The position numbers and the translations under genes were made by a program. Of a stretch of DNA of 64,000 nucleotides, positions 23,765-64,000 are shown one piece after another. The DNA is from Patescibacteria group bacterium. GTDB lineage: Bacteria > Patescibacteriota > Minisyncoccia > Moranbacterales > UBA2206. Positions within the stretch are counted from its first letter, which is position 1. Every line of letters starts with the position of its first letter. The notes under the pieces are model-generated. The model did no database searches. It saw only the letters and a program-made list of their open reading frames with translations, and had not been told where the DNA came from. The stretch spans positions 405,754 through 469,753 of the forward strand of contig JAKLFF010000001.1 in the NCBI GenBank assembly GCA_022711335.1, in the 5' to 3' direction.

Positions 23765-23770
23765 TTTTTT

Positions 23771-45908: not shown

Positions 45909-47069
45909 CTACAAGCTTATTTGATATAGTTTCCCGTCAAGCTTGTTTATAAAAAATAGCAATCCTTCATCTGGGGACAGAAATAAATCAGATGCGTCGA
46001 ATTGCGCGTTTATTTTTTGGAGCTCGGAAAGTTCGATTATTCTTTCTGATTGCCGGGATGCCATATCCATTTTCCAGAAAGTATCGCTGGTTTTTATTTT
46101 TCCATTGTTGTAATCGTTGGGAAACATGGCGGATTCAGGAAGGTTTCCCGGTAGGGCATAATATAAAATTTTATTGTTTTTGGACCAGGTGCATTTCGAG
46201 ACAAATGTAGGAATGCCCAGGTTTGAATATTCTCCCCCATTGTAGTTCACAATGGCTAGCTGTATTTTCGATCCGCCTTTGGCGTCGCTGTGGCTTATAA
46301 GAATGTTATTTCCAGAATTGTCCCAGAGATAGTCAGCTCCAAATTTTTCCTTAAACAGGGATTTTTTTTGGCCGCCGACAGTCGGAATTGATTCTAGGCT
46401 GGTTTGGGACATATTATCAGGCTTGTTCCAAAAAGAAACGCTTCCACTTTGAGGAATTGGTGCGACAGAAGCGTTTAAATAGGCCAAGTCAGCCAGTTTT
46501 TTCCAATTGCTTCCGTCGGGATCTGAAATATTAAGCGTAGCCTTTTTTCTTTTGGGATCAATATAAACGTAGAAGATCTTGTCGCTTGACTGGTTCCAAA
46601 CAGCTTCGCGGATATTTTTGTCAAGGGAATATCCTTTTCCAGCCGAATAATTGTAAGAAGAAAATCGAGTGCTGCTATCAGATTGGAAAAATTTTGAAAT
46701 AACTTTAGTTTTATCTGGCGACCAAAGAATATTTTTTAAATCAATTAAATCATTGGCAGAAAGAGTTTTTTTGTTTGTTCCATCAAGATCAATTTCATAG
46801 GCATGGCCATCTTTTTGCGAATAATATTTAATAGACAGTCCGTTGGGGGAAAGAACTGGGGATAAAACAGCTTCATCGGAAATGGCAGAAATTTTAGCGG
46901 TATCTTTTTCCGGTTGAGTGGCAGAAACGGGCTGTGCGGGATTTTCTTTTTTAACGGTCGGGGCGACTTCTTTGGGTTTATAAAAAGACAAGCGATAAAT
47001 GCCCAAAAAAAGGATAGAAACGATGAAAATAATAAGAGACGCAAAAAAAAGTTTTTTAAGAAGAGACAC
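45909..47069 (-). CDS. Membrane-anchored WD40-like beta-propeller (PD40/TolB-like repeat) protein; last gene of the T4SS-like operon
   Basis: N-terminal TM anchor, a Pro/Ala-rich linker, then repeated ...DG..I.Y......IW..D..G.N...L... blocks (e.g. KDGHAYEIDLDGTNKKTL; DKIFYVYIDPKRKKATLNISDPDGSNWKKL). Confidence 0.45.
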   Translation of the reverse strand: MSLLKKLFFASLIIFIVSILFLGIYRLSFYKPKEVAPTVKKENPAQPVSATQPEKDTAKISAISDEAVLSPVLSPNGLSIKYYSQKDGHAYEIDLDGTNKKTLSANDLIDLKNILWSPDKTKVISKFFQSDSSTRFSSYNYSAGKGYSLDKNIREAVWNQSSDKIFYVYIDPKRKKATLNISDPDGSNWKKLADLAYLNASVAPIPQSGSVSFWNKPDNMSQTSLESIPTVGGQKKSLFKEKFGADYLWDNSGNNILISHSDAKGGSKIQLAIVNYNGGEYSNLGIPTFVSKCTWSKNNKILYYALPGNLPESAMFPNDYNNGKIKTSDTFWKMDMASRQSERIIELSELQKINAQFDASDLFLSPDEGLLFFINKLDGKLYQISL

Positions 47070-47072
47070 TTT

Positions 47073-48407
47073 TTAGTTATTAAATCTTATATGAAGAATG
47101 CCGTTGGGCTCATTATAACCGTCGCAATTTTTTCTGAGTCGAGAGTTTGCGCTATCTGTACAAAGTTGAGCTACATTTAGCTGGCTGCTGTTATTATAGA
47201 CGCATTGTGCTTGGGTTGAGCTTGCTTCTACATCAAAAGTCAGTCCGTTATGAGATGAATGTCCAGTTTCATTTGCTCCTGTGATGGTGTTTATACCGCA
47301 AGTGTTTTTAACTGCAATAATCTCATTAATAGCATTATTTTCCATTCCATCAAGACTGGTGCATCTGGAATTATTGCGATCTGAACAATTTCCGGAACTT
47401 TTAATAGAAAAACCGGCATCAGTGAGAATTTTTCTTAGTGCTGCATCAGTTCCCGTACCCGTTGAAGTTGTTATAGCTCCTCCGCTGGTGGTTCCGCTTC
47501 CGGTCAGTGCTGAACTGGCTGTGTCGCAAGTGAACGTGTGCCAGCTGGATTTTCCAATTCCAAGCTGCGGATCGGCATTGGCCACCCAGGTTATCGTAAC
47601 ATCCACAATCAGCCAGGCGGCGAGAGTAATGGCAAATCCGACCAGGCTGGCCGTGAGAAAATCCTTAGCTTGAGTAATCATTTTCTCGCTTCCAGTGGAA
47701 ACCGTGTACATTATTCCGGAAATGAAGATAGCTACAATAGCTACGGTTACCAGGATATTTTTCCCCCATTCAATAAGATTCCAGATACCGATGATAAGAT
47801 GGCAAAGGGTGCAGGGGTCAGATTCTCCCCCGCAAGGGACAATGCCGGAAGAACTTGAAGAAGACGAAGTTTGGCTATATGTAATTTTCAATACGCTGCA
47901 GCATATTTTTCCGCTATCGCAATTCGAATCATATTCAGATACATGCATAGAATAACTGCCGCTGCAGCTGCTGCCACTCTGACACTCTCCCTGATCATAC
48001 AGAGTATCGTTATCTGGCACGCAAGTTGTTGAAGAGCTGCTGCTGGTTTTTGTTTCGGTGCAGCAAACTCCATCACTGCCTATTTTTGATACGCAATCAA
48101 GAGAATAATCAAGTTGTTTGCTGCAATTGCTTTTCTTTGCACAAATTGCTTCTCCAATATTTTTTTTTATTTCATTACTGTTGCATTGAAGAACACAACA
48201 ATATTCATCAGAACTACAGCCATATTTTCCTCCGGCAGTATCCAGGGGAATTTCTGCAGAAACAGCGCAGTTTTTATTTACAGAACAAGTCCCACCATAA
48301 ATATCTTCGCATTCAGAAGCAAAAGCAATTTGAAAAGAAAGAAAACTTCCAACAAATAACATTAAAAAGAAAATAAATATATTTATTTTTGATGTTTTTT
48401 TATGCAT
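47073..48407 (-). CDS. VirB2/TrbC-type (CPR 'T4SS pilin'-like) protein with N-terminal Cys-rich domain and C-terminal putative LAS/M15-like peptidase domain
   Basis: Signal peptide, then a Cys-rich region (ECEDIYGGTCS...CCVLQCNS...). The pilin core is PCGGESDPCTLCHLIIGIWNLIEWGKNILVTVAIVAIFISGIMYTVSTGSEKMITQAKDFLTASLVGFAITLAAWLIVD, two TM helices with a conserved Cys pair. The C-terminus has ...TGHSSHNGLTFDV, resembling the S-x-H-x-x-G-x-A-x-D zinc site of the VanY/M15 LAS peptidases. Confidence 0.55.
   Translation of the reverse strand: MHKKTSKINIFIFFLMLFVGSFLSFQIAFASECEDIYGGTCSVNKNCAVSAEIPLDTAGGKYGCSSDEYCCVLQCNSNEIKKNIGEAICAKKSNCSKQLDYSLDCVSKIGSDGVCCTETKTSSSSSTTCVPDNDTLYDQGECQSGSSCSGSYSMHVSEYDSNCDSGKICCSVLKITYSQTSSSSSSSGIVPCGGESDPCTLCHLIIGIWNLIEWGKNILVTVAIVAIFISGIMYTVSTGSEKMITQAKDFLTASLVGFAITLAAWLIVDVTITWVANADPQLGIGKSSWHTFTCDTASSALTGSGTTSGGAITTSTGTGTDAALRKILTDAGFSIKSSGNCSDRNNSRCTSLDGMENNAINEIIAVKNTCGINTITGANETGHSSHNGLTFDVEASSTQAQCVYNNSSQLNVAQLCTDSANSRLRKNCDGYNEPNGILHIRFNN
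47509..47856. repeat. ~350-bp near-identical duplicated segment (pilin core), copy A
   Basis: ~90% identical by eye to 50485-50830, e.g. GCTGAACTGGCTGTGTCGCAAGTGAACGTGTGCCAGCTGGATTTTCC... in both. Confidence 0.6.
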
Positions 48408-48464
48408 TTCTGGATTTATACTAGCATATTTTTTGACAAAAAAACAGGATTTTGAATGATGTCG

Positions 48465-49178
48465 CTATTTATGTCTTTTTTTCCAAAAAAAATAAATTGC
48501 TAAAATACCCAAAGTGAACGCAGCTGCTAATAAATATAAAAGGTGGTTTGCTTGGTTTTTGGTTTCAGATCTCGGGTTGCTTTCAACAATATTAAATTTA
48601 GAAAGAGTATTTTTTAGACTGCAATCGGATGGACAATTTTCCTGATTTTCCCCCTGGTCGCACTCGTTATTTTCATTGCAAGTTGCGACGGAAGATAGAT
48701 CAATGGAAAAAACTTTATTGCCCTTTTCATCATAAATATCCGCGAATTTTCCATTGGGGAAATAAGGAATATTTATGAGAAGGTTGCCTTTTGAAACTTC
48801 TTCACAGCCTCCTTTTATTTCCCCGGTCTTTTCATTGAATTCATCGCTACAAATAATTGTCTTGAGACTGCCCACAGGGAAATATCCCAAATTCTTTCCC
48901 TGAAAAGAAACAACTCTTCCATCAGGTTCTTCCTGATATATGCTGTTGCTGTAGACATACTCTCCGTTGGCTATTCGCAGCCCAATAGTTTTGAACTTGG
49001 AGTCGGTTTTCTGAATTGAAGCTGCGACAAACTTCGAAGTTGACAGTTGATCGGCAGCGGAATTTTTTCCCAAAATGGCAAAGAAGCAGGAAAAAATAAC
49101 AAAAAGAACCAAATTTATTTTTTTTATGTTTTTCATTTTTTCCTCCAACCTCTTTTCAAATTGATATTTTTTAAACAA
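48465..49178 (-). CDS. Hypothetical secreted protein with C-terminal TM anchor
   Basis: Signal peptide, a Cys-containing ectodomain (CNENNECDQGENQENCPSDCS), and a C-terminal hydrophobic helix + KKRHK. Confidence 0.4.
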   Translation of the reverse strand: MFKKYQFEKRLEEKMKNIKKINLVLFVIFSCFFAILGKNSAADQLSTSKFVAASIQKTDSKFKTIGLRIANGEYVYSNSIYQEEPDGRVVSFQGKNLGYFPVGSLKTIICSDEFNEKTGEIKGGCEEVSKGNLLINIPYFPNGKFADIYDEKGNKVFSIDLSSVATCNENNECDQGENQENCPSDCSLKNTLSKFNIVESNPRSETKNQANHLLYLLAAAFTLGILAIYFFWKKRHK

Positions 49179-49238
49179 ATCAACTTGCGAGGATAATACG
49201 AATTAATGAAAAAAGTCAAGTGAATTATGCAAAACTTT

Positions 49239-50963
49239 CTATTCATCAAGACTTTTAAGTTGGACATGCTGATTGGGATAACTCGAAATTGTTTTTTTGA
49301 TTATATATTCCTGCAGCGCGGAAAATGCCGAAGCTGTCAAATGGTTATTCATTAAACTGTTTTCTGACGATCTATAGCTGTCCTGTGTCAAACAGCCGGA
49401 ATGGCAGCCAGTTTCTATTGTTTTCCACTTGGTACATTCTTTGTTTGTTGTGCAGTTATAATTATGTTCTAGTTTGGCATCGTTAAATTTTTTATATGGG
49501 CTGTATTCATCTGATAGAAACGCAAAATTATGGCCAATCTGTTCATGGGCTAAAACATTAGGACTTATATTTCCGATGCAATAATAAGCATTATTTCCCA
49601 TATCGCCGTAAGCAGTTTTGCCACTGCCATTTTGGATCCATCCGTAACTAACATATTCCTTTTTTGATTCCACATCCGGGCAAATATTTGTTTGTGTTGT
49701 TGTAAACACTTTGTCTGATCGGTATACGCCGAAATTATCCGATAAATTATTAGCATTGGCTCCGCTGGATGCAAAAGAGACTTTCGTTTTGAAAGTGTCC
49801 GTTTGATCCGTATTATTTTCGTCCCACATTTCAACAGAATCTGAACAAGGCTGGCTTGATAAACCTATAAAATGTGTATTTATTCTAGCCAGAATTAGAA
49901 TAAACTTGGCGTCCTTGTTTCCATAAATAAACTGGCATCCGTCTGCATCGTCGCTGATAGATAGCGACTTTGATACGACAGCTGTTTCGGAGCTGCTTAT
50001 GACTATCCCAAAATCATAATCTCCCGCCAAAAGAGCGGTGCTGGTGTTATATTTTTCCGATTCATAGGGAAAAGTTATGGTGTAAGTTTTTGTGCTGGCT
50101 TTGGCGTCTTCGGAAATTATTTTGAAGTTCTGGCTGGTTGCATAGAATTTTTTGGAAACATTTCCTTCGGCTATGCCTATTCCTATGGCAAACTTTGTCG
50201 GATTTTTTACATTAGTGCAAACGCTTACTGAAAGGCTGCCTTTTTCCTTAATATCTTTTAGCGAGGCTGAAGATGGATTTAGTCCGCTTATAAAATAGCT
50301 GTTTTCTCCATCAGTTATTTCGGCGGCTTGTGCCTTATTTATACTGATAACTTCAGGCGCCAAACTTCGGTTATTCATAGTAAATTCAGGAGGGGTGGAT
50401 ATGACCTGAGTTTCTCCTGAAGGTACGGCGCAGGTTGGCGGCGCGGTGCTTTCAATTCCGGTACTGCTGCTCCCGCCTGATGCCGAACTGGCTGTATCGC
50501 AAGTGAACGTGTGCCAGCTGGATTTTCCGATTCCAAGCTGCGGATCGGCATTGGCCACCCATGTTATCGTAACATCCACAATCAGCCAGGCGGCGAGAGT
50601 AATCGCAAAACCAACGAGGCTAGCCGTAAGAAAAGCTTTAGCTTGAGTAATAAGCTTCTCATTTCCTGTAGAAATCGTATACATTATCCCGGAAATGAAG
50701 ATGGCGACAATGGCTACGGTTACCAGGATATTTTTCCCCCATTCAATAAGATTCCAGATGCCGACGATAAGATGGCAAAGGGTGCAGGGATCAGATTCTC
50801 CTCCGCAGGGAACAATGCCTGTGTGTGTAGATTCTGTGGTAGGATTTGTGACAGTAATCATTGGTCTGTTTCCGCTCATGTCAATCGGGTCGGAAGCAAA
50901 AACAGCATTACCGGAAAACAATGCGAATGCAAAAAAAAATACAAAAAAGAAGAATTTTTTCAT
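49239..50963 (-). CDS. VirB2/TrbC-type pilin-like protein fused to a C-terminal HExxH zinc-metalloprotease-like domain
   Basis: Signal peptide, then the pilin core PCGGESDPCTLCHLIVGIWNLIEWGKNILVTVAIVAIFISGIMYTISTGNEKLITQAKAFLTASLVGFAITLAAWLIVD. A ~400-aa extracellular domain ends in ...VLAHEQIGHNFAFLSDEY (HExxH). Confidence 0.55.
   Translation of the reverse strand: MKKFFFFVFFFAFALFSGNAVFASDPIDMSGNRPMITVTNPTTESTHTGIVPCGGESDPCTLCHLIVGIWNLIEWGKNILVTVAIVAIFISGIMYTISTGNEKLITQAKAFLTASLVGFAITLAAWLIVDVTITWVANADPQLGIGKSSWHTFTCDTASSASGGSSSTGIESTAPPTCAVPSGETQVISTPPEFTMNNRSLAPEVISINKAQAAEITDGENSYFISGLNPSSASLKDIKEKGSLSVSVCTNVKNPTKFAIGIGIAEGNVSKKFYATSQNFKIISEDAKASTKTYTITFPYESEKYNTSTALLAGDYDFGIVISSSETAVVSKSLSISDDADGCQFIYGNKDAKFILILARINTHFIGLSSQPCSDSVEMWDENNTDQTDTFKTKVSFASSGANANNLSDNFGVYRSDKVFTTTQTNICPDVESKKEYVSYGWIQNGSGKTAYGDMGNNAYYCIGNISPNVLAHEQIGHNFAFLSDEYSPYKKFNDAKLEHNYNCTTNKECTKWKTIETGCHSGCLTQDSYRSSENSLMNNHLTASAFSALQEYIIKKTISSYPNQHVQLKSLDE
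50485..50830. repeat. ~350-bp near-identical duplicated segment (pilin core), copy B
   Basis: Matches 47509-47856. Confidence 0.6.
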
Positions 50964-51013
50964 GGATATATAAATAATTTTATAAGTAAATCTAAAAATT
51001 CTACAAATTTAAA

Positions 51014-52126
51014 CTAAGTGGGACAGTTTTTATATACATTATAGTTAGCTATTATTCCATCGCAATAGTTTCCTCCGCAAGCGTTTCTATCTGTACAAGA
51101 TCCACAGTAGAGCTTAGCAGCCTTTCTAATTCCAGCTTCGCTATAATCGCCGCCGCTATCAAGACGGATTTTATTTGCTGCACATTTAAGTGCGTCTTGC
51201 CGATTAAATTTGCTTCCTGAGCACCCATATCTCTTGTCATACCATGTTCCGTCTGTGAATTGCATTGCTCCTCCAGCCCCATAAAGATTATTTTTATTAC
51301 AAGCGCTTGGATTAGACATAGCAGGAGAACATTCTCTTAGCATAAAAGAAGCTAAGAGGGCAGTAGGAACTCCGCCACCGGCATTATTGAGCTCGTTTTT
51401 CAGAGAATCATTCAGATCACTGCATGTTCCAGTTGCACGTACGGCTGTCCCGCTTCCGCATCCTGCAATACATTCTGATGTCCAGCTTTGATTTCCTCCG
51501 GCATCCCGACACCATTTTTCACACTCGGCCTGATTTTGAGAAGAACTTGCACCTGACATGCTAATTGTTTTTATCTTCACCAGTTCCGGATTAATGACAT
51601 AAAGAATAAGATAAGCAGAGAGGGCCATAAGCACTCCGATTATGGCGTCGGTAATAATTCCCTTGGCTTTTTCCATTGAAGCGTTGTTTCCGGCGCTGGT
51701 GATGTACATAAAACCGCCGATCATAATCATAAGTAGCGCAGAAAGGCCGATAGTCCAAATGCCGAAATTATAAACTGCCAGAACATAGGTCGAAAAATCT
51801 CCGGTAGCGTCAAATCCCGGTATTTTTTCCATGGGAGTATAATCAAAAGATGCTGAATCTGAACTGCCGGTGCCAGTCTTAGGTTGGCTAGCGCTGGGAT
51901 TGGTTTTTGAGGCATCCGTTGATCCTGAAGGGTCATTTTTTGTAGTATAGTTTGAAACACCGCTGCTTGAGGAATCATTTTCTGGAGTATAATTTGAATC
52001 GCCTCCAAAATCTTCCGCAAAGGCCTGATTTGAATAGCTGAATAAAAAACAAAGAGACAAAACGAACAGGGCGAAAACAAAGATTGAAAATAACAAAACC
52101 GGATATTTTTTTATTTTAGTATTCAT
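51014..52126 (-). CDS. VirB2/TrbC-type pilin-like protein fused to a C-terminal lytic-transglycosylase-like (VirB1-like) Cys-rich domain
   Basis: Signal peptide and a Ser/Thr-rich linker, then the pilin core YVLAVYNFGIWTIGLSALLMIMIGGFMYITSAGNNASMEKAKGIITDAIIGVLMALSAYLILYVINP. The C-terminal domain has LRECSPAMSN...LYGAGGAMQFTDGTWYDKRYG, an E-x-S...G-x-MQ-x...Y pattern of family-1 SLT lytic transglycosylases, and many Cys. Confidence 0.55.
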   Translation of the reverse strand: MNTKIKKYPVLLFSIFVFALFVLSLCFLFSYSNQAFAEDFGGDSNYTPENDSSSSGVSNYTTKNDPSGSTDASKTNPSASQPKTGTGSSDSASFDYTPMEKIPGFDATGDFSTYVLAVYNFGIWTIGLSALLMIMIGGFMYITSAGNNASMEKAKGIITDAIIGVLMALSAYLILYVINPELVKIKTISMSGASSSQNQAECEKWCRDAGGNQSWTSECIAGCGSGTAVRATGTCSDLNDSLKNELNNAGGGVPTALLASFMLRECSPAMSNPSACNKNNLYGAGGAMQFTDGTWYDKRYGCSGSKFNRQDALKCAANKIRLDSGGDYSEAGIRKAAKLYCGSCTDRNACGGNYCDGIIANYNVYKNCPT

Positions 52127-54794: not shown

Positions 54795-55465
54795 CTGTTT
54801 ATGCCGTATATTATATAACTGTTTACAATTATTATAAACAGCAGGCCCGAAAGATAAGGAAAAATAAACGATTTACTTTTGTAGGCCAAAAAGCCATTGG
54901 TAACCGAGAGAGCAATCGGCGCGGAAAATTGCCAGAAAAAACCGTTGCTTAAGGAGGAAAACAGGATAAATACTGCTGCCTGAATCAGAATTGACCAATG
55001 TCCGAATTTTTTGGAGAGCGCGGACAACATGAATCCTCGATAGAAAAATTCCTGGGAAAACAGCAATATATTCATAAGAAGCAGCTCATAAAGGACAAAA
55101 AATGAAAACTGGCCTATCGTATTGCTTGGCAAAGCGTATCTTTTTTGCAGCGAGGTGTAGCTGAACAGAAAATAATAAAAAATAATCAGGCTTATGAATA
55201 AAATAGCTCCGAACAGCATGCCCGTCTTCTTGTCTTTTATGTTCAATCCAAAATCCGAAAGATTTTTTTTGAGAACTATTTTTATATAGAGTGTTGGAAG
55301 TACAACTAGAAAAAAAATATTTCTAATGATGAGCTGAATAAGGCTGCCATTGTCAACCGGGAAAATGACAGACAAAATAAGGCAGGAAAAAAGCAAAAAC
55401 AAATCTATTAGCAATTCTCTATTTTCGCAGCATTTCTTGTTAAGGGGTATTGTAAAAAACGCCAT
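54791..55465 (-). CDS. CPBP (CAAX-protease/Abi)-like polytopic membrane protein, possibly degenerate
   Basis: Polytopic. SQEFFYRGF resembles CPBP motif 1 (EExxxR) with Q for E, followed by KFGHW.... The other motifs are not clearly conserved. Confidence 0.35.
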   Translation of the reverse strand: MAFFTIPLNKKCCENRELLIDLFLLFSCLILSVIFPVDNGSLIQLIIRNIFFLVVLPTLYIKIVLKKNLSDFGLNIKDKKTGMLFGAILFISLIIFYYFLFSYTSLQKRYALPSNTIGQFSFFVLYELLLMNILLFSQEFFYRGFMLSALSKKFGHWSILIQAAVFILFSSLSNGFFWQFSAPIALSVTNGFLAYKSKSFIFPYLSGLLFIIIVNSYIIYGINR

Positions 55466-55517: not shown

Positions 55518-56000
55518 TCATGCCGGGAGAAATTCCCCTCCGCCCATCTTCTCCAATATTTTTGCATCATTTTCAATCTTTCTTTTGGATCGCATGTATG
55601 CATACACAACGCACGCAGTGCTAAGCGGGAGTATGCTGATGAAAGGAAAAAAATCTATCAATAAGCAAATATAATAAACAGCCCTTATTCTCCAGCTTCC
55701 TTTTCCCCATAGAAAAAGAAACAAAAGTGGCCTGAAAAACAGAGAAACGATCCATCCGGCAATCGGTATCATATCCATGCAATCGCAGGAGATCGCAACC
55801 GCAAGAACAATGAGCCAGGGCGCTTTTTTGTGATTTTCAGCATCTTTTCTTAGTTCTCCGGCAAGCCTTATGGCTTCAATTGGAGCCATAAAAGCCGGTC
55901 TTTTTAGCGTTCGAGACAGTGATCGGTAAGATTTTTCATAGGAATTATTCCTGGCCTTTTCCAGATTATTTTTATATTGATGTTTTTGGTATATATCCAT
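55518..56000 (-). CDS. Hypothetical membrane protein immediately downstream of virB4
   Basis: 160 aa: a charged N-terminal region followed by 2-3 TM helices. Confidence 0.35.
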   Translation of the reverse strand: MDIYQKHQYKNNLEKARNNSYEKSYRSLSRTLKRPAFMAPIEAIRLAGELRKDAENHKKAPWLIVLAVAISCDCMDMIPIAGWIVSLFFRPLLFLFLWGKGSWRIRAVYYICLLIDFFPFISILPLSTACVVYAYMRSKRKIENDAKILEKMGGGEFLPA

Positions 56001-56005
56001 TGATT

Positions 56006-57823
56006 TTATTCATTTTCCAATTCTTTTTTGGCTTCCTCAATTTCCAAAAGCTGCGCCGGATCGGTGGTGATTATCTGGTCTTCTGAATAGGAAGCAATGA
56101 TTTTTATCGCGACATGCCTGGTTCCGGCAAAAAATATGCCCTCTCCCACATTGGATTCCAAAAGCAAGAATTTTTCCTGATCAGTAAGATAAAAAGTTTC
56201 GCTGATAACATCAATTCCAGCAGGAGATTGTTTGAGAAGCAGTTGAATGGATGAGTTGGTAACAATGGCTTTCCCGTACCTTGAAGCTAAAAAGTCATTG
56301 ACATCCTGGGTAATAGTTGTAAACCCTGTATAATATTTCCGGCATCTTTTGGCGATTCCGAACATAAAAGAAGCCGCATCTTCATATTTCATCATAACCC
56401 AGGCTTCATCAACAAGAACCAGCCTTTTTTTGAGATTGCTTCTCATTTCATTCCAGATAAACTGAAGCACGGTGTACATGGCCACTGGGCGGAGGTCTTC
56501 TTCCATGTCCCGGATGTTAAAAACAAACATCTGATTGTCAACTTTTACATTGGTTGTATGGTTTAAAAATCCGGAAAAAATTCCTTCCGTATATTTTTCC
56601 AGCCTTATCGCCAGCAATTCCCCGCCTTCCATATTGCGAAGAACCTGGTAAAGATCTGACATGGTTGGAAAAGATTCTTTTGAAAGCGCGTTAAAATTGG
56701 TTTGAGCCGTAATATCCCGAACTTCATAGGTTTCGCGCACAGCTCGGTCCAGAATAGAATCTTCTTCAGGTGTGATATTTCCAAGCATAATATGAAGAAG
56801 TCCGAGGATGTTGGCAATATTATTTCTCAAAATATCCTCCGGATCTTCGTCCTCTTTTATGTGTGGAAGATCAAACGGATTGATATGGTTTTCAGAACTT
56901 AAGGATATTTTTACAAACGTTCCTCCGACAGTTTCGCAAAGATGCTTGTATTCATTTTCTGGATCAATGACAATTATTTCTGTTTCCAACATCATTGAGC
57001 GGAGAATTTCCAGTTTTACCGCATAGCTTTTTCCAGCGCCAGATTTGGCAAAGACCACCATATTGGCATTTTCCATCTGAAAGCGGTCAAAGATGACCAG
57101 GCTGTTGTTGTGGCGGTTGATTCCGTAAAGAATTCCGTTGTTATCCGAAAGATTTGAGGAAACAAAAGGAAAGGTTGTGGAAAGCGGAGCGCTGTTCATG
57201 CTGGTTCCTGTATCCAGTTCATCATTAGCCAGGGGAAGCGACGAGTTGAATCCTTGTTCAGATTTGAAAACGGCCGGCTTGACGTAGACTAATTGCGCTT
57301 CAAGGATAGATTCAATGTTTTTGGCTGCCTCGCTGACTTCTTTTTCTGTTTCTCCATAAACAGTTATATATAGGCCGAAGCGGAAGAATTTTTCGGTTCC
57401 CTGCTGAAGCTTGTCACGCAATTCCTCAATGTCCTGAATAGCAGTTTCGAGGGCTGGATCGCGAATGAGGCCCTTTTCTTGCTCCATATGCGCTCTTGAT
57501 TGAACTTGAGTGGCGCTTTTTTTGAGGGTTTTCAAAACATCATAAGTTTCGATGGGATGGACAAACATGGAAATATCAATCGGCATGTCGATGTTTATAA
57601 TCGGAGAAAACCAATTGCTTTGGAGATAGCGGGGATAAGCAATGACAAAAATAGTCTGAGCCAGAGTTTCTCCGACGCGAATGCTTCTGGGATTTATCTT
57701 TATGGCGGCTGGGGCAATCAAATCATTGAGGCGCGCCACTCCCTCCTGGTAATATTTCTCCGATTCCAAAATTTCGTCTTTTCTTGTTTCGATGCCGCTT
57801 GTTTTTTTGAATGGGTTAAGCAT
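56006..57823 (-). CDS. Type IV secretion VirB4/TraC-family ATPase
   Basis: Walker A VVFAKSGAGKS, Walker B RLVLVDEAWVMM, and a C-terminal ...ITQDVNDF...LLLKQ region. The N-terminal region (IKINPRSIRVGETLAQTIFVIAYPRYLQSNWFSPIINIDMPIDISMFVHPI) is characteristic of VirB4. Confidence 0.85.
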   Translation of the reverse strand: MLNPFKKTSGIETRKDEILESEKYYQEGVARLNDLIAPAAIKINPRSIRVGETLAQTIFVIAYPRYLQSNWFSPIINIDMPIDISMFVHPIETYDVLKTLKKSATQVQSRAHMEQEKGLIRDPALETAIQDIEELRDKLQQGTEKFFRFGLYITVYGETEKEVSEAAKNIESILEAQLVYVKPAVFKSEQGFNSSLPLANDELDTGTSMNSAPLSTTFPFVSSNLSDNNGILYGINRHNNSLVIFDRFQMENANMVVFAKSGAGKSYAVKLEILRSMMLETEIIVIDPENEYKHLCETVGGTFVKISLSSENHINPFDLPHIKEDEDPEDILRNNIANILGLLHIMLGNITPEEDSILDRAVRETYEVRDITAQTNFNALSKESFPTMSDLYQVLRNMEGGELLAIRLEKYTEGIFSGFLNHTTNVKVDNQMFVFNIRDMEEDLRPVAMYTVLQFIWNEMRSNLKKRLVLVDEAWVMMKYEDAASFMFGIAKRCRKYYTGFTTITQDVNDFLASRYGKAIVTNSSIQLLLKQSPAGIDVISETFYLTDQEKFLLLESNVGEGIFFAGTRHVAIKIIASYSEDQIITTDPAQLLEIEEAKKELENE

Positions 57824-57919
57824 TGATATGCTGTTATCCTTTGTTCAGATCCAAGTCTGAACTAAGGATCTATAATGTATTATTTGTAGTTTTGTTTGTA
57901 TAATATAATTCCAGCTAAT

Positions 57920-57992: not shown

Positions 57993-58002
57993 TTTAAGAG
58001 TG

Positions 58003-58689
58003 TTAATTTAGTTCCAATTTGCCGCTGTCAGCAAGGCCGACTGAATTATAAACGCTGGGATTGTATGAATTGAACAATAACTCAATTATTTCCTGGGTTT
58101 TGAGCGGAACGATCCGAACCCCGATTCCAGAAAGAGCGGCAGTTACATGGTCTACTCTTTGAAAAAGCTGGCTTTTGTAAGTTTCAAAATTTTCTCTTTT
58201 TTCCAGGATATTTTTTCTGGGATTAATCAGGCTTCCGATGTTCGAAAAAAATCCTTTTTCTTGATTTTCAATCGGAGAAAAGGGAATGATAATATAGAAA
58301 TTTTTGTCCATTATATTGGATGAGGATGTCAACTGGCTGATGAAATTTTTATATTCGGAAATTTGAAACCTCAAAAGCTCATTGGGCTGCTGCTTTTCAT
58401 GCTGGGAAAGAAAATCCAGATAGTTTTCCATATTCAATTTTCGCGAACTTATGAGAATTTGAAGGGGAAAATCTATGGAATTGAGAAAATTTTGGTATTG
58501 GCTGACAATTGCTTCCTGCTCGTCGGTAGATTTTAGCTCAAAATTGATTGCAGAGACAGCCAAAACTGCCCGAAGCGCTCCGTTTTTTAGAACAATAACG
58601 TCTTCCCTGATCTCTGCGACATCCAGATATTTTTGGGTAGCGGCAGTGGAAGTTTCAGCCGTTATTTTTTTTGAGTGTAATATTTCCAT
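58003..58689 (-). CDS. VirB4 N-terminal-domain-like protein (probable detached first part of VirB4)
   Basis: Hydrophilic 228 aa. VAEIREDVIVLKNGALRAVLAVSAINFELKSTDEQEAIVSQYQNFLNSIDFPLQILISSRK matches the conserved start of the CagE/TrbE/VirB4 N-terminal domain (...l.dGs...v..v.g..f.l.s.eeq......f..fLn.l....qi...s.r). 228 + 605 aa is about the length of a full-size VirB4. Assigned from memory of family patterns. Confidence 0.4.
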   Translation of the reverse strand: MEILHSKKITAETSTAATQKYLDVAEIREDVIVLKNGALRAVLAVSAINFELKSTDEQEAIVSQYQNFLNSIDFPLQILISSRKLNMENYLDFLSQHEKQQPNELLRFQISEYKNFISQLTSSSNIMDKNFYIIIPFSPIENQEKGFFSNIGSLINPRKNILEKRENFETYKSQLFQRVDHVTAALSGIGVRIVPLKTQEIIELLFNSYNPSVYNSVGLADSGKLELN

Positions 58690-58693
58690 AAAT

Positions 58694-59086
58694 CTATTTT
58701 AAATCCAGTATTTTTGAAATTTCTTCTATTTTTTGGCTGTTTAATTCTTTTTTCTTTAGCGGTCTAGGCTTATTTTTGGCTGTTTTTCTGACTGGCACGT
58801 CATTTTCTGCAGCCCTTTTCCATATATACATACGAGGGCGGAAAATAAAAGAAATTGACGATCCGATAAAAGTAATCAGAGAGACGTTGTAAGGACGATA
58901 AAAAGCTAAGGCTCCGAAAATAATTCCTACGATTACGCAAGAAATGACAAAGGCGGACGTATCGAGCAGATTAAAAAGAACAAGAAGGACTACTCCTCCG
59001 AGCGCCAGCCAGCCCAGCTGCTTGGCAGTGAGCGGACCTACGATCTTGTCTTCGATGTCTATAAATTGTGGAACATTGAACAGCAT
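58694..59086 (-). CDS. PrgI-family (VirB3-like) small membrane protein
   Basis: 130 aa: FIDIEDKIVGPLTAKQLGWLALGGVVLLVLFNLL + a second TM, matching the PrgI/VirB3-like pattern (a charged motif, then 2 TM). It sits directly upstream of the VirB4-related ORFs. Confidence 0.55.
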   Translation of the reverse strand: MLFNVPQFIDIEDKIVGPLTAKQLGWLALGGVVLLVLFNLLDTSAFVISCVIVGIIFGALAFYRPYNVSLITFIGSSISFIFRPRMYIWKRAAENDVPVRKTAKNKPRPLKKKELNSQKIEEISKILDLK

Positions 59087-59188
59087 TTGTCATATAGCAT
59101 ATATCATACAACATATAACAAAAATTATAGTTGTTCTGATATGCGCTTTTTTAATTTTACCATACTTTAAATCCAAAGTCCCCTTTTT

Positions 59189-60790
59189 TTATTCCATTGT
59201 GGATGGAAAAATTCTGTACGGCTGAGCTTTGGGTTTTGGGGGAACTTCCGGCTGAATCGGTTCAATCGATTTTTGCTCTAATTTTTCTTTTTCCTGTTCA
59301 AACGGGAGCTTATGCGGAGAGGAAAACTGCATGCCTGATCCGGAAGCGCCTTCAGTTGGCGAATAATAGCCTCCAGCCAGCTTTTTTTGAGCCAGATGGT
59401 TGTTGGTCTGGAATAATTTTTTTTCTGTTTCATCCAGCGATTCCCGGAAGCTTCCAGTATTTGATCCTTTTATATTTTGGGAATAGCTGTGAGGTATGAA
59501 ATTATTTTCCGGCGAAAGCGACAGTTTTTCTTTTCGGATTGAATTAATATCTGTTTTAATCTGCTGTTTCTCCGCCAGTTCTTTCTGCGAATCAAAGGGA
59601 AATGCCTGGAATGATTTCTTCGTTTCGCTTGGCCTGTTTTCCATGGCCGGTTTATCGTATGGAGCAGAAGCAGGATTATTCGCTTCCCTTTCTTTCCGGC
59701 TTTGCTCGACTAGTTCCTTGATATTTAGAAGATTCTTTGGCTGTGGCACAGATGGAGCAATTGCCGGCTTCTCTCTTTTTTCTTCCTTCAAATTTACTAT
59801 GCGGGGAGCGTTAAATGTCGGCGGCGCTTCTTCTTCCCTTTTTTCTCCAAATCCGATGACTTTTTCAAAATCATCTCCCGGTTCCTTAGTTTTTGGCTGG
59901 TAGGCAGGTTTATTTTCCATAGGAAAGCCTTTTATTTCTCCAGAGCCTATTTGGGGATTGGGAATCGGAAATTTATCGGAAATTGCTTGAGCTTCTTGCT
60001 TTTTTTCCGGAGCATAAGCTGAAAACACAACTTGTTTCGTGTTAAGATCGACAGCCAGTGGCGTTTTTTCATCAAATGATTTTAAAATTTGCGACAATCT
60101 CTGCCGGTCTTCATATCCCAAATTTCTCGTATTTTCATTTTGAAAAAGATAGTTGCCTCTTTCAATGGAATCGTGGCTCTCATATCCGAGCCGGGCGGTA
60201 TAATCTGAAAGCCAATTTTTAATGGAGGGGCGGATGAGGTCATTGAAATTTTTTATCCTGATTTGCTGCGAGGTTATGGTCTGCTCACCAAGGCCGGGAT
60301 ATTTTTTCATTGCGTCGATAAGGCTCAGTTTTTCAGAAGCAGTTTGATGCTCTTGTGTTTTTTCCAAAGAGATATTTTGGCTGGATTTTTCTTCTTCCAA
60401 AATCCACGGCTCGATTTCCAAAACTTTTTTCCAGGCTTCATCTTCGGAAATAACCGGAGCGGATTTCATTTGCGACCACTTCTGAAGAAGCGCTTCGGAA
60501 TCTTTGAAATATTCAGGAAAGCGATTAAAAATCCGTTTGTTAATTTCATAAGCCAAGCCATAAATTTGAGGTTTTTCAAGATGCAAATTTTCCCAGATAA
60601 TATGCGGAAGATTCTCCAGTTTTATATCACCTACAAAAATCAAGCCAATGGGGCTGGAAATATTTTTAATAGATTCTTCGGGTATGCGAAAAGCAAAGCA
60701 AGATTTTTCAAGAGCTAATCTTGGTTCATTGGAAATGAAATATTCTTTTATATTTTCTGGAAGTTTTTCAACTTTCTCAATAAAATCCAT
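59189..60790 (-). CDS. Hypothetical hydrophilic protein of the T4SS-like operon
   Basis: 533 aa, no TM. The C-terminal half is low-complexity and P/E/K-rich. Function unknown. Confidence 0.4.
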   Translation of the reverse strand: MDFIEKVEKLPENIKEYFISNEPRLALEKSCFAFRIPEESIKNISSPIGLIFVGDIKLENLPHIIWENLHLEKPQIYGLAYEINKRIFNRFPEYFKDSEALLQKWSQMKSAPVISEDEAWKKVLEIEPWILEEEKSSQNISLEKTQEHQTASEKLSLIDAMKKYPGLGEQTITSQQIRIKNFNDLIRPSIKNWLSDYTARLGYESHDSIERGNYLFQNENTRNLGYEDRQRLSQILKSFDEKTPLAVDLNTKQVVFSAYAPEKKQEAQAISDKFPIPNPQIGSGEIKGFPMENKPAYQPKTKEPGDDFEKVIGFGEKREEEAPPTFNAPRIVNLKEEKREKPAIAPSVPQPKNLLNIKELVEQSRKEREANNPASAPYDKPAMENRPSETKKSFQAFPFDSQKELAEKQQIKTDINSIRKEKLSLSPENNFIPHSYSQNIKGSNTGSFRESLDETEKKLFQTNNHLAQKKLAGGYYSPTEGASGSGMQFSSPHKLPFEQEKEKLEQKSIEPIQPEVPPKPKAQPYRIFPSTME

Positions 60791-60791
60791 A

Positions 60792-63056
60792 TTAGGCTAA
60801 ATTATTCAAATACAAATCTTTTTTAATTACTTTCAATGTGCTTTGTCCATTAATTCCAAGAGGAGTGGTTGAAGCTTTAAAATAACTGATGATATCTCTT
60901 TTTGTTTGATTGCTACTAATATTTTGGACAATTTCTTTGATTTTTCCTGAATTTATATTTTCAGTGAAGGAATTTCTTTGTGATGTGGTTAGTGAACCAA
61001 AATCAAGTTCTTTTAGGGTATCTTTGTTTCCGGTTTTGAAAATATTTTCCGTAAAGCTATCATCGGCTATTTTGCCCCAAACAGCAGTGTATGCTTTTTG
61101 TATATTTTTATGGACCTCATCAGTGTTCAAATTGAATTTTCCACTGGTAGCAAGTTTGTCGAGAGAGTTTTCGATATTCTTTTTGTAAGCTTCTCCTTTT
61201 CCTTTGGCTTCCAAAAGAGTGTCCATGTTTATAGCTCGTTCACTAAAGGCTAATTCCAAAATATTTTCATTTGCAAACACATTGCTAGACCATTTTTTAG
61301 GATCGGACTGGTTGCTGTTTAGGTATGCTTTTATGGCTGATTCCCAATTCGCTGGATCTGATTTTAGGTGCGAGAAAGCTGTTTCTGGATCATAGGCCTT
61401 GAGTTTGTTGTTGATCTGATTGAATACTTGGCTATCTGTTCCAAATTCTTTGCGCATTTGTTCGTAAGCTATTTTGTCAACGCCTGAAGCGTAAAGCGCA
61501 TTTTTATTAGCCAATTCCTTAAGAGCGGCTGCTCTTACAAATTTGTCCTTGGAAGAAGCAAGTTGCCTTAGTTCGTCAGGAGTTTTGTTTTCCATATCAT
61601 TTCTTTTGGATTCATTTTCCACTTTTTGGGACAAATCTCTTTGATATCTAAGCCGGGCATCTTTTGAAGCTACTCCAAAAAGCCGATCTTGCTGGCTTCC
61701 GGCGAAAGTTCCTAAGCGATTCCTCCACCAGTCCTTTTGAGCTTCTTTTCGTCTGGTTCTATAAGATTCCCAGGCACCCATCGCGAATCCGGCCGGAGTG
61801 AGGGTTTTTCCGGCCCAGCCCATAAACTTCTGTCCCCTTCCCACCACCGCGCTGGCGCCGGCAATGCTCATAGTTTGGGCGGTGCCGATGCCGATCCAAA
61901 GAATCACTATAGGGATGGCGAAAAATGAAGCGGCAGCAATAAACCCAGGATCACTGGCACTTTGTCCTGTGATTGCATTCATCGAGCCTTTTGTATAGCT
62001 AATAGCCCCCATCATTCTGGTAGCAACAACGAGCATAAAAAGCATAATTGGACCAAAAAAAGCATATTTAAAGAGCATATCCCACCACTTGCTGGCATAT
62101 GAGGAAAGAAAAGGAACAATTGATCCGACAAAAGCAATGGAGGAAAAAATAACCAAAATAGTGAGTGCGACAAGTCGTATTATAAAGAGAATGGCAATGA
62201 TTAGAAGGGTAACTGCCAGAATAAAACTAAAAATTACGGCAGCAATAAGAAATGACAGATCGGCACCGATTTTTTGGGGCGGGTGAAGTATTAAATCCAA
62301 ATTAGAATTTTTAGCGATTTCCGCAAACCATGAACCAGCACTTTTATCAAAACCTAATGCTTTTGCAAAATAGTACATTATAATATTAGAAAAATCGATA
62401 ATGACTCTGGCAATTGGGAAACTGAAATTAACAAGAAGCGCCATGATAATCAGCGTTAGGAGAATTTTTTTGTAGTTGAATTTTTCAACCTGGAAAACTG
62501 TGCAAAAAGCAGAAAAAAGAAGAACTAAAATAAAAGAGATATTGAGAGTGTCTCGCACCATACCCCATATTTGATAAATTATAGGGTTGCTCATAACATC
62601 AGTAAAATTTTTTGCATCTAGAATCCAAATAAAAAGAGTTGAAGACACTTCCAACATTTTCTCTAAAAACAGAAGTACATAAAGCAATAGGCACTTTACA
62701 AAATTAATTAGAACGCTAAGACTTATAATATCTCCCATTCCCATTCCACAAACAGTGTCTCCCATCTGTTGTTGAACTATCTCGCCAGTTGTTTTTTTGA
62801 TTTCATCTGATCCATTATCGAATTTAAAATTAGCTGTTTGATTATTGGAATTACAGTATTGAGCACAAGCTTCTTTCGTGGGCTGATCAACTGGGGTTAA
62901 ATAGATAAAATTGCCTCGTTCCCAATCTTCTTTTGAAGCGCATTCACATGATTTAGCATGAACATGAGTAGAAAATCCAAAACCAGCCGCGAAGACAAAA
63001 ATGAAAATCGCAGCCAGAATAAGTTTTTGTTTTTTCTTTATATTTTGATTAAACAT
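60792..63056 (-). CDS. VirB6/TrbL-like polytopic inner-membrane protein with N-terminal Cys-containing ectodomain and long cytoplasmic C-terminal tail
   Basis: 754 aa: signal peptide + CxC...C...C domain, at least 6 TM helices in the middle (…ILAVTLLIIAILFIIRLVALTILVIFSSIAFVGSIVPFL…), and a ~300-aa hydrophilic tail. This architecture is typical of VirB6/TrbL channel subunits. Confidence 0.5.
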   Translation of the reverse strand: MFNQNIKKKQKLILAAIFIFVFAAGFGFSTHVHAKSCECASKEDWERGNFIYLTPVDQPTKEACAQYCNSNNQTANFKFDNGSDEIKKTTGEIVQQQMGDTVCGMGMGDIISLSVLINFVKCLLLYVLLFLEKMLEVSSTLFIWILDAKNFTDVMSNPIIYQIWGMVRDTLNISFILVLLFSAFCTVFQVEKFNYKKILLTLIIMALLVNFSFPIARVIIDFSNIIMYYFAKALGFDKSAGSWFAEIAKNSNLDLILHPPQKIGADLSFLIAAVIFSFILAVTLLIIAILFIIRLVALTILVIFSSIAFVGSIVPFLSSYASKWWDMLFKYAFFGPIMLFMLVVATRMMGAISYTKGSMNAITGQSASDPGFIAAASFFAIPIVILWIGIGTAQTMSIAGASAVVGRGQKFMGWAGKTLTPAGFAMGAWESYRTRRKEAQKDWWRNRLGTFAGSQQDRLFGVASKDARLRYQRDLSQKVENESKRNDMENKTPDELRQLASSKDKFVRAAALKELANKNALYASGVDKIAYEQMRKEFGTDSQVFNQINNKLKAYDPETAFSHLKSDPANWESAIKAYLNSNQSDPKKWSSNVFANENILELAFSERAINMDTLLEAKGKGEAYKKNIENSLDKLATSGKFNLNTDEVHKNIQKAYTAVWGKIADDSFTENIFKTGNKDTLKELDFGSLTTSQRNSFTENINSGKIKEIVQNISSNQTKRDIISYFKASTTPLGINGQSTLKVIKKDLYLNNLA

Positions 63057-64000
63057 TTAATATCTATATCTTCCCGACGAACTGCTGTTATATAGTGAAC
63101 TCGGACCATATTTGCTAAGATTGCCATTGACTTCATTTACAACTTTATCGGTCACTTGATTGACTTGCCGGTCAACTACGCTGGAAACGGCGCCGATCCC
63201 GGAAAGCATCGCTTTTGTGACAATATTGGAAACGACCGATGAAATTATTTCAGCCGGATGAGTGGCGGCGGCAATAATCTTGTTGCCCATGTCCTGGACA
63301 TTGGCCATGGTCTGGGCGGTGAGCGATCCGGGGGTGACAATAACTCCGTTTCTCATTGTTCCCTTGTATCCTTCATAAGCAACTGCTTGAGTGGAAGCTA
63401 TTTGTCTCTGATTTTGCAAATATTCCTGATATTTATTTTGGGCATGAATATCAAAAGCCCAAGGATTATTTATTCCGGACAAATAAAGATTCATTTTTTT
63501 GAAATTTCCGTCGCTAAACATATAAGCCGGGCTTTCTTCGTATGTTACTTTCGGATCAGTCCTTTCTGAAGTAGACTTTTTCCCGACATTTAGTAGTTCT
63601 TCATAATAATTTCCGGAAGAATAGGTTTCATCGTCAGATCCTAGCACCTTTCCGCCAAAAAAACCTTCATTATTTTTTGAATCAGACGCGCCGAGGACAT
63701 AGGAGCGGGGAACGGAAACATAGGAAGAATATGAACCTCGTCCCCGCGTCAGCTGGGACAGATAATCATTGACATATCTGTCGGCTTGGCGCTGGGGTTC
63801 GGTGATAAGGAAGCTTTCCCAATTGGTGATAAACATAGCGCCGGAACCAACAGTTCCGCCGATAAGCTTGCTGACTTGCTGGTCAAGCATCCTGGCGGCT
63901 TGCATCTTAAGAGTTCCCAAAATTATGCCATTGAGATTATAGTCTATTTTTTCCAAAGTTTGCTTGAATATCTGCCCTGGAATTTCGGTCCAGGCGAAAG
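63057..64000 (-). CDS. Hypothetical protein, 3' part only (gene continues beyond the window end)
   Basis: The open frame continues without a stop to position 64000. The track's Met at 63956 is a TTG. Hydrophilic, Ser/Tyr/Asn-rich. Stop-to-start overlap with the VirB6-like gene. Confidence 0.4.
   Translation of the reverse strand, partial: FAWTEIPGQIFKQTLEKIDYNLNGIILGTLKMQAARMLDQQVSKLIGGTVGSGAMFITNWESFLITEPQRQADRYVNDYLSQLTRGRGSYSSYVSVPRSYVLGASDSKNNEGFFGGKVLGSDDETYSSGNYYEELLNVGKKSTSERTDPKVTYEESPAYMFSDGNFKKMNLYLSGINNPWAFDIHAQNKYQEYLQNQRQIASTQAVAYEGYKGTMRNGVIVTPGSLTAQTMANVQDMGNKIIAAATHPAEIISSVVSNIVTKAMLSGIGAVSSVVDRQVNQVTDKVVNEVNGNLSKYGPSSLYNSSSSGRYRY

Follow-up and report, generated by a model that had tools for sequence, protein, structure and literature searches.

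A probable chromosomal type IV secretion system of the Patescibacteria clade in a Moranbacterales genome

What purpose is served by a long run of conjugation-like genes in a bacterium of the Patescibacteria, when the genes around it are ordinary housekeeping genes? The question arises from contig JAKLFF010000001.1 of assembly GCA_022711335.1, assigned to the Moranbacterales, of which a stretch of 64,000 nucleotides (positions 405,754 to 469,753 of the forward strand), referred to below as the window, was analysed. A reading made from the sequence alone had described, at window positions 45909-64000, a block of genes for a type IV secretion system (T4SS)-like apparatus in an organism belonging to the CPR (candidate phyla radiation) type, and had proposed a non-conjugative machine for surface, uptake or attachment functions. 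This proposal is supported by the parts list, the flanking genes and the match to published T4SSs of the Patescibacteria clade. With a probability that we place at about 0.85, the block encodes a chromosomal, vertically inherited Patescibacteria-clade T4SS that descended from monoderm MPF_FATA conjugation machinery and acts as an epibiont-host machine. The T4SS reading is thus correct, but it is already published in its essentials (PMC10633639, PMC12102498, PMC12857230).

The assignment begins with the ATPase. The 605-aa VirB4 protein, encoded at 56006..57823 on the minus strand like every other operon gene described here, consists of the end of an N-domain and a P-loop C-domain of the CD1110/MPF_FATA type. 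It scores 380 bits against the NCBIfam model conju_CD1110 (1.8e-113; cutoff 325) over profile positions 185-733 of 752, matches Pfam P-loop_TraG at 2.1e-27, and has as its nearest solved structure the C-domain of Thermoanaerobacter VirB4 (4ag5, 1.5e-52), with TrwK at 1.1e-8. Its best plasmid relatives belong to Bacillota and Actinomycetota and show at most 36% identity. A 228-aa TrsD-like protein encoded at 58003..58689 is matched by the NCBIfam models VirB4_plasma (3.3e-10) and TrsD (1.6e-8), carries the precomputed Pfam label PF26593 (TraC-like), and aligns with positions 2-120 of the CD1110 profile. VirB4 is thus split into two genes, with the N-terminal domain encoded separately. For comparison with other genomes, open reading frames (ORFs) were collected from 80 related loci and grouped by iterative searches, and 30 loci with at least 9 kb on either side of virB4 were treated as full loci; the TrsD-like gene is separate from that of VirB4 in 79 of 81 loci, and its product measures 198-255 aa in all 30 full loci. 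The sequence-only reading had overlooked the 228-aa ORF as a split-off VirB4 N-domain, while every assignment that it did make, including a VirB4 ATPase, survived testing with differing strength.

Two membrane components accompany the ATPase. The 130-aa product of 58694..59086, with two transmembrane (TM) helices, exceeds the Pfam PrgI threshold of 27 bits with a score of 39.9 (6.2e-10), as expected from its earlier labelling as PrgI/VirB3-like. The 754-aa polytopic protein encoded at 60792..63056 is predicted to contain about seven hydrophobic segments in residues 1-390, followed by a hydrophilic C-terminal domain of about 360 aa. It gives a weak NCBIfam match to the CD3337/EF1877 mobilome membrane protein (5.7e-4) and none to Pfam TrbL, so that the former VirB6/TrbL-like label finds its support in relatives and not in the window protein itself: two homologues that are 36-40% identical to it (P0034 and P0097) score 27.3 and 25.3 bits on TrbL (threshold 25.9), and PF19590 or PF04610 is found on many others. 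A profile built from 32 VirB6-like homologues matched neither VirB6 nor TrwI among PDB sequences. Judged by its relatives, topology and position, the 754-aa protein is probably an extended VirB6-like subunit.

The extent of the block was established by extension on identical sequences. All fourteen co-directional minus-strand ORFs between 45909 and 64000 lie where they had been claimed to lie, and neighbouring ORFs overlap by up to 11 nt or stand as much as 179 nt apart. The outermost of them (63057..64000) had been given a TTG start at 63956, which proved to be an artefact of ORF listing; its frame is open to base 63998, and the ORF is thus cut by the window edge. The 754-aa protein was found in identical form on seven public contigs, including a 103.9-kb ENA contig and JGI metagenome contigs, the longest of 470,928 bp. 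On such contigs the edge ORF is complete at 375 aa and is preceded by a gene for a 358-aa TSP3_bac protein, 74 nt from which stands a divergent UbiA-family gene, followed by genes for KsgA, an RpfB-like G5/DPBB protein, a ComM-like Mg-chelatase ATPase, a DksA/TraR zinc-finger protein and YraN. Because of the divergent UbiA gene, the operon is considered to end two genes past the window, which gives it 16 genes and about 19.4 kb (window 45909 to about 65309), in agreement with the earlier estimate of more than 18 kb running past the edge. An ATPase or coupling protein had been thought possible beyond 64000; the bitopic 375-aa protein, the TSP3-repeat protein and UbiA were found instead. The term operon is used here on account of the packing, common orientation and conserved gene order, not of promoter or terminator signals: consensus scans for promoters and terminators returned sites no more numerous than in shuffled sequence. 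Rfam and tRNA scans of the 64-kb window gave no matches.

Is this block a mobile element or a fixture of the chromosome? The order KsgA, UbiA (on the opposite strand), 358-aa protein, 375-aa protein, VirB6-like protein, 533-aa protein, PrgI, TrsD, VirB4, 160-aa protein, CPBP protein, 892-aa protein, pilins and beta-propeller is kept in about 20 species, among which VirB4 is 78-85% identical and the other proteins 27-68%. Since gene order and housekeeping flanks (KsgA, UbiA) are syntenic and the identities fall together, the locus appears to be a vertically descended part of the chromosome and not an island. Across the 30 full loci, VirB4, TrsD and PrgI are present in all, the 533-aa protein in 28, the VirB6-like protein in 26, the propeller in 25 and a pilin core in 24; less widespread are the 160-aa protein (17), the CPBP and 892-aa proteins (15 each), and the 375-aa and 358-aa proteins (13 each), the 375-aa family being confined to the Moranbacteria level. 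All counted families keep to the virB4 strand and to conserved offsets, and the propeller is always downstream of VirB4. No relaxase, VirD4/TcpA coupling protein or integrase was detected by Pfam among window ORFs of at least 150 aa or by Pfam labels in the 10 kb upstream (about 74 kb in total), the sole further secretion ATPase there being a tandem protein of the PilB/GspE type. There is also no compositional break, the G+C of the operon block (0.36-0.43) falling within the 0.33-0.47 of the remaining window; attachment repeats around the block were not searched for. The earlier statements that mobility genes are absent and that housekeeping flanks speak against a classical conjugative element are therefore upheld over this larger region, and the proposed check of conservation in related genomes had a positive outcome.

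The organism itself is a CPR bacterium, a Candidatus Moranbacteria. The exact VirB6-like protein has been deposited under Candidatus Moranbacteria, and a VirB4 scan of a genome collection with one genome per species returned 575 relatives, the best 80 of which (55-85% identity) are all syntenic CPR-type loci, as anticipated for a CPR-type organism. The approximately 25 closest (73-85%) are mostly labelled Moranbacteria/Moraniibacteriota or Parcubacteria, and the next tier (55-67%) Falkowbacteria, Komeilibacteria and other Patescibacteria. Several third-party records of metagenome-assembled genomes (those of loci L017-L023, L028, L030, L053, L059 and others) are titled Bdellovibrionales, Gammaproteobacteria or Micavibrio and carry T4SS loci of the Moranbacteria/Parcubacteria type; given the CPR gene order, these taxonomic titles are probably wrong.

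On its other side the operon is bordered by genes for two Wzy_C proteins, two GT2 glycosyltransferases, a Wzx-like flippase, KhpB/Jag, YidC, DnaA and DnaN. The dnaA gene (36786-38330) lies 7.6 kb from the 3' end of the operon, dnaN occupies 35339-36496, and the cumulative GC-skew minimum falls at 36-38 kb beside dnaA; the replication origin is therefore placed there, some 8 kb away from this 3' end. All of the T4SS operon accordingly lies on the lagging strand, head-on to replication, and the GC skew drops from +0.12-0.15 at 38-46 kb to about 0 across the operon. In the literature, proximity to the origin has been suggested to raise T4SS expression.

Towards its distal end the operon encodes pilin-core proteins of 370 aa (51014..52126), 574 aa (49239..50963) and 444 aa (47073..48407). 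All three, previously described as VirB2/TrbC-like pilin proteins, fall below the 26.6-bit threshold of Pfam T4SS_pilin (PF18895), with 4.6e-5 (23.9 bits) for the 444-aa, 7.7e-5 (23.1 bits) for the 370-aa and 7.9e-4 (19.9 bits) for the 574-aa protein, but they belong to the same family as members above it. The matches coincide exactly with two-TM hairpins. The family to which the three cores belong includes members at 28.7-37.9 bits, and the hairpin of the 370-aa protein alone retrieves 54 matches in related loci, several of them above threshold at 28.7-33.1 bits. Behind an N-terminal hydrophobic segment, the 370-aa protein carries its core at about residues 96-184 and a GH23-like domain at 186-370; the 574-aa protein has its core at about 49-156 and a 414-aa C-terminal domain; and in the 444-aa protein three Cys-rich repeats precede a core at about 187-295 and a 150-aa C-terminal domain. 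These Cys-rich modules (window 47900-48320) are tandem units of about 45 aa with a CC pair at the end and match no family. Between the two latter pilin genes, 48465..49178 encodes a Cys-containing, lineage-specific protein of 237 aa with hydrophobic segments predicted at both ends; it has no family match and a single weak relative in the 80 loci.

The C-terminal domain of the 370-aa protein is of interest as a possible wall-cutting enzyme. The window sequence does not match Pfam SLT, and support for an SLT lead emerged only once a family profile had been built. Residues 186-370 have 15 relatives among 1.84 billion representatives, five of which are fused to pilin cores, and two of which have CHAP after the domain, in the same order (GH23 then CHAP) as in VirB1 of monoderm systems. 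The family alignment contains an invariant E80 and G101-x-x-Q104-F105 (a G-x-M-Q-F motif). Searched against the PDB, the profile retrieves goose-type lysozyme best (E 0.014), aligned on the segment with the catalytic Glu, and next RpfC and the lytic transglycosylase gp144 of phiKZ (E about 1.4); the evidence for a GH23 domain also includes an hhalign P of 8.7e-4. A tblastn search of the domain against plasmids yielded nothing. A VirB1-like, Cys-rich GH23 domain fused to the pilin core is accordingly proposed for this protein with moderate confidence, as the family profile suggests.

The domains attached to pilin cores vary widely. In a sample from related loci, 43 of 55 pilin-core proteins have a C-terminal extension of at least 100 aa, and the 66 extensions of at least 60 aa form 34 BLAST clusters. 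Those of the window's own proteins have no relatives in the 80 related loci; the C-terminal domain of the 574-aa protein in addition matches nothing in Pfam, NCBIfam or PDB sequences, and no homologues were detected for the flanking domains of the 444-aa protein. Extensions that can be named in related loci are SLT in the positional orthologue of the 370-aa gene (L008:15980-16927, 23.5 bits against a threshold of 21.3) and VanY in L073:14175-15395 (28.2 bits against 25). Of two further candidates picked out by eye from motifs, the 574-aa C-terminus as an M64-like metalloprotease was rejected, its motif being HEQIGH instead of HExxH and Pfam, NCBIfam and PDB all blank, and no support was obtained for the 444-aa C-terminus as a VanY/LAS peptidase, for which an hhalign comparison with the VanY-carrying pilin cluster gave P 0.003 over 16 columns and there were no other matches. 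The cores of the 444- and 574-aa proteins are 88% identical over 121 aa with unrelated flanking domains, and are encoded by a 300-nt direct repeat of 88% identity (47487-47786 and 50460-50759), which fits domain shuffling or gene conversion at the pilin core. Because so similar a core lies between unrelated flanks, swapping of the attached domains by recombination at the core suggests itself. A doubtful extension of this idea would make the VirB2-like core of Parcubacteria-type T4SSs a reusable carrier for hypervariable extracytoplasmic heads, which may comprise GH23 and VanY-type wall hydrolases and many Cys-rich modules, exchanged by core recombination, with the CPBP protein processing the C-terminal anchor of the 892-aa protein; if true, the result would be an armed pilus or a membrane-anchored toolkit that cuts the host wall. 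Neither the pilin-head carrier nor the CPBP processing is found in the cited T4SS papers, and the accessible part of the supplements of PMC12102498 contains no PF01464, SLT, PF02517, PF07676 or 'fusion'.

The CPBP gene (54791..55465) and the gene for the 892-aa surface protein (52116..54794) overlap by 4 nt and are inherited together: of the 44 loci that reach 6 kb or more downstream of virB4, 19 have both, none has one without the other, and 25 have neither. The 224-aa product of the former is a predicted CPBP (Rce1-like) intramembrane protein by its Pfam score of 28.1 bits (threshold 22.4), so that the label of a CPBP-like protease was appropriate as a family match; its top NCBIfam models are myxosortases (MrtA 3.1e-10), far under their cutoffs (40.6 against 200). 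The latter had been called a large anchored surface protein, and it does possess an N-terminal hydrophobic segment (presumed to be a signal peptide), several beta-sandwich domains and a tail in which a conserved 'ILA[ST]..S..P.Y..FL.R' motif is followed by a TM helix and a charged end. CPBP motif 1, EExxxR, supplies the active-site Glu, and motifs 2 and 3 are defined by His residues. The window protein has a motif-1-like QEFFYRG, and across 25 sequences the motif-1 Glu is replaced in three, E127 further upstream is invariant, and there is no conserved His, the single His of the window protein standing in a variable column. As in myxosortase-type CPBP sorting (bioRxiv 10.1101/2023.06.07.544157; PMC11980579), a CPBP protein thus lies beside a strictly co-inherited protein with a motif, a TM helix and a charged tail; unlike in those systems, the tail motif has no invariant Cys, the NCBIfam scores are low, the motif-1 Glu is variable and no His is conserved. 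Myxosortase-like processing of the 892-aa tail is consequently offered by analogy as an idea, not a finding. A role of the CPBP protein as a pilin maturation enzyme was also considered and is weakened by the lack of a conserved His and by its distribution, which tracks that of the 892-aa gene (15 of 30 full loci) and not that of the pilins (24 of 30).

The remaining products are less readily named. The 375-aa protein, whose gene is the second in the operon, carries a single predicted TM helix at residues 42-60, close to the N-terminus, and a large portion outside the cytoplasm, and matches nothing in Pfam, NCBIfam or PDB sequences, nor in the PDB when searched as a family profile; as a bitopic protein it is a positional candidate for the VirB8-like slot. 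The cytoplasmic 533-aa protein (59189..60790), a conserved T4SS-linked component, has no TM helix, shows conserved modules at about 1-100 and 140-300 followed by a low-complexity tail, and its family matches no solved fold. Directly after VirB4, 55518..56000 encodes a 160-aa protein with three predicted TM helices, which has no Pfam or NCBIfam match and whose family occurs in 33 related loci. The last operon gene (45909..47069) specifies a 386-aa TolB-type (PD40) beta-propeller with an N-terminal membrane anchor. On its own this protein gives a partial match to the NCBIfam TolB propeller (5.6e-6); a profile of 33 orthologues retrieves TolB at 9.5e-9 and PD40-derived designed propellers at 1.7e-13 from the PDB, so that the propeller assignment, weak for the single sequence, is clear for the family.

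How does the locus compare with systems already described? Quinonero-Coronel et al. (2025; PMC12102498) reported VirB4 in 2,417 of 3,035 Patescibacteria genomes, nearly all of one clade within MPF_FATA, associated with TrsD, PrgI/VirB3, VirB6 and arrays of VirB2-like pilins; the loci are often near dnaA, dnaN and ksgA, and relaxases are almost absent (109 in 103 genomes). The window locus has the same constitution, with VirB4 and a separate TrsD, PrgI/VirB3, a probable VirB6/TrbL-like protein and PF18895-type pilins, in a chromosomal cluster near dnaA, dnaN and ksgA that lacks relaxase and coupling protein, and by similarity ranking and synteny it would be a typical member of the clade, its unusual fused pilin genes apart. 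In Southlakia epibionticum, the transposon sequencing (Tn-seq) of Wang et al. (2023; PMC10633639) identified the T4SS cluster SEML1_0006-0019, including its pilins, as essential for epibiotic growth; that cluster has no recognisable relaxase or coupling protein, and ComEC was dispensable. Its core order SEML1_0013/0011 - 0010 - 0009 - 0008 equals the VirB6-like ... PrgI - TrsD - VirB4 of the window. The six pilins of S. epibionticum, however, are short (103-185 aa) and form a divergent array, and a lysozyme/glucosaminidase is encoded by a separate gene beside virB4, whereas in the window the pilin cores stand at the distal end of the operon, are fused to domains of 150-430 aa, and are accompanied by no stand-alone hydrolase. 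The main texts of PMC12102498 and PMC10633639 mention neither the CPBP and 892-aa pair nor the propeller, nor any of the 533-, 375- and 358-aa families.

With the monoderm MPF_FATA systems (CTn2 CD1110, pCF10 Prg, pGO1 Trs and the Mycoplasma integrative and conjugative element), the locus shares a CD1110-type VirB4, TrsD and PrgI, the lack of outer-membrane core proteins and, in family members of the 370-aa domain, a VirB1-like fusion of GH23 to CHAP. It differs from them in that no relaxase, coupling protein, VirB8-like (PrgL/TcpC) subunit or PrgB-type adhesin was detected in the window, in its VirB2-like pilin cores, and in its chromosomal, vertically inherited setting outside any mobile element. 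The closest non-CPR relative found is on an 897-kb replicon of Pontibacillus sp. ALD_SL1, a free-living member of the Bacillota (NZ_CP062975.1, L086, 351-361 kb), where two pilin-like proteins, a 779-aa protein, a PrgI-like protein (116 aa), a TrsD-like protein (274 aa, 30% identical, E 4e-31), a short VirB4 (621 aa, 36%) and a peptidoglycan hydrolase follow one another in matching order. One of the pilin-like proteins bears the NCBI name 'Mbov_0395 family pilin-like conjugal transfer protein'. The annotation shows no relaxase for 12 kb to either side, the replicon is typed non-mobilizable, and flagellar genes adjoin the locus. It differs in its short, unfused pilin-like proteins, a separate 1050-aa M23 hydrolase and the absence of the CPBP/892-aa pair and the propeller. 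Judging from these gene similarities, at least one genome of the Bacillota combines pilin-like genes with a split VirB4, and the combination is hence not confined to CPR bacteria. A more distant likeness exists to Helicobacter pylori ComB and archaeal Ced, which likewise combine a VirB4-family ATPase with small TM or pilin-like and polytopic proteins and have neither relaxase nor coupling protein. The window VirB4 matches CedB at 7.9e-15, far more weakly than conjugative VirB4s (54 against 380 bits), ComB has a diderm VirB7-10 core, and the similarity to these uptake machines is one of genes.

From these parts a working model can be drawn. VirB4, together with TrsD, would dock on PrgI and the VirB6-like protein at the membrane and supply the power to extract pilin cores and build them into a conduit or a short pilus that crosses the cell's own wall, where the GH23 head on a pilin core may open the peptidoglycan locally, a task that falls to a separate VirB1 elsewhere. 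The 892-aa beta-sandwich protein, the TSP3 protein and the propeller would act at the surface, with surface proteins holding the host cell, and macromolecules would then move between epibiont and host while the bacterium's own DNA is not mobilised.

The direction of this movement is harder to settle. Import has been proposed for Patescibacteria (PMC11665869, PMC12102498), and by analogy with the logic of ComB and Ced we lean towards uptake of host nucleic acid or other macromolecules, tentatively and with somewhat less than an even chance of being right. The leaning is due to the missing relaxase and nearby coupling protein, the dispensability of ComEC, the host RNA uptake and tubular epibiont-to-host connections reported for a cultivated relative (bioRxiv 10.64898/2026.06.21.733656), and the precedents set by ComB and Ced. 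Traffic in the opposite sense, in which an effector-translocating T4SS exports proteins, perhaps including the pilin-fused domains, into or onto the host in order to manipulate or lyse it, was suggested as protein export by Wang et al. (PMC10633639) and speculated upon as effector delivery (PMC11665869). The hypervariability of the extracytoplasmic domains on pilin cores (34 clusters among 66 extensions) would suit such a role, as would the fact that the named extensions are all peptidoglycan hydrolases (SLT and VanY in related loci, GH23 here). However, most effector translocators need a coupling protein (PMC12102498, PMC12857230) and none is encoded nearby, the operon is devoid of candidate soluble effector genes, and proteins with an N-terminal hydrophobic segment presumably reach the surface via Sec and do not need a T4SS, all of which makes effector export rather unlikely, though still a serious rival.

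Transport could also be absent altogether, VirB4, VirB6 and PrgI merely assembling pilins and surface proteins into a pilus or adhesion organelle. Three pilin-core genes, the beta-sandwich protein, the Ca-binding TSP3-repeat protein and the propeller, all extracytoplasmic, would be at home in such an organelle, and so would the tubular connections of the cultivated relative. Adhesion and motility, though, are already served in Patescibacteria by type IV pili (PMC10633639, PMC12857230), the window also encodes a PilB-type ATPase, and the retention of a VirB6-type channel subunit points to translocation; we regard a purely adhesive organelle as improbable, though it too stays in contention. Hardly any credence is given to an integrated conjugative element, or a remnant of one, with its relaxase, coupling protein and integrase outside the examined region. 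VirB4 is admittedly of the conjugative CD1110 type, matching records of the plasmid collection are mostly typed conjugative, and a few Patescibacteria do carry relaxases, in the numbers given by PMC12102498. Against this stand the lack of an integrase, relaxase, type IV coupling protein, tRNA gene or compositional break in the 64 kb plus 10 kb, the KsgA/UbiA-flanked synteny in about 20 species with identities falling in parallel, and the dnaA-adjacent site seen in many Patescibacteria (PMC12102498).

Several points weigh against the preferred reading of an epibiont-host T4SS. The VirB6 and pilin assignments draw on transitive or below-threshold similarity, no VirB8-like subunit (NTF2-fold PrgL/TcpC/TraM) was identified by sequence, and the GH23 assignment is moderate, with a best PDB E of 0.014. 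Membership of the Patescibacteria clade derives from similarity ranking and synteny, not from a VirB4 phylogeny. The search for mobility genes covered about 74 kb, and a distant coupling protein, which is common in Patescibacteria (PMC12102498), or a relaxase may lie beyond it. The direction of transport and the substrate are pure inference.

The window contains further features that are separate from the T4SS operon. The tandem ATPase mentioned above is a 1011-aa protein (9191-12226, plus strand) with two T2SSE (PilB/GspE-type) stretches (Pfam 6e-221), which by its domains is an ATPase of a type IV pilus or of type II secretion, fused in tandem. At 19772-24631 (plus strand), a 7TM_transglut membrane protein is followed by four ATP-grasp proteins (ATPgrasp_ST/RimK-like), one of them fused to Zn_protease; from its domain content this cluster looks like a peptide-ligase or modification system. 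A RhuM and Fic domain protein is encoded at 711-1757 (minus strand), and a 631-aa surface protein with three lamin-tail domains and a PKD domain at 14865-16760 (plus strand). A region of about 2.9 kb at 30676-33610 has no ORF above 130 aa and a raised G+C (0.466 at 30-32 kb), and gave nothing above the curated thresholds of Rfam. It includes a hairpin-rich element of about 95 nt that occurs twice (30726-30811 and 31734-31820), with an identical 34-nt core and each time just 3' of a small minus-strand ORF, as well as a nucleotidyltransferase/HepT toxin-antitoxin pair (32327-32954) enclosed between inverted repeats of 26 nt (32266-32291 and 32951-32976).

Few machines have been shown to be indispensable to CPR bacteria in their epibiotic life, and the Patescibacteria T4SS is among them. 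The present locus adds no new kind of system; it provides a full conserved parts list for the Moranbacteria/Parcubacteria version, and the Pontibacillus locus bears on the source of the CPR pilins. The 533-aa family (28 of 30 full loci), the propeller (25 of 30), the CPBP/surface-protein pair and the proposed pilin-fused wall-cutting domain are leads and not a discovery in themselves. They offer concrete targets for structural and genetic studies of the way in which ultrasmall bacteria draw on their hosts.

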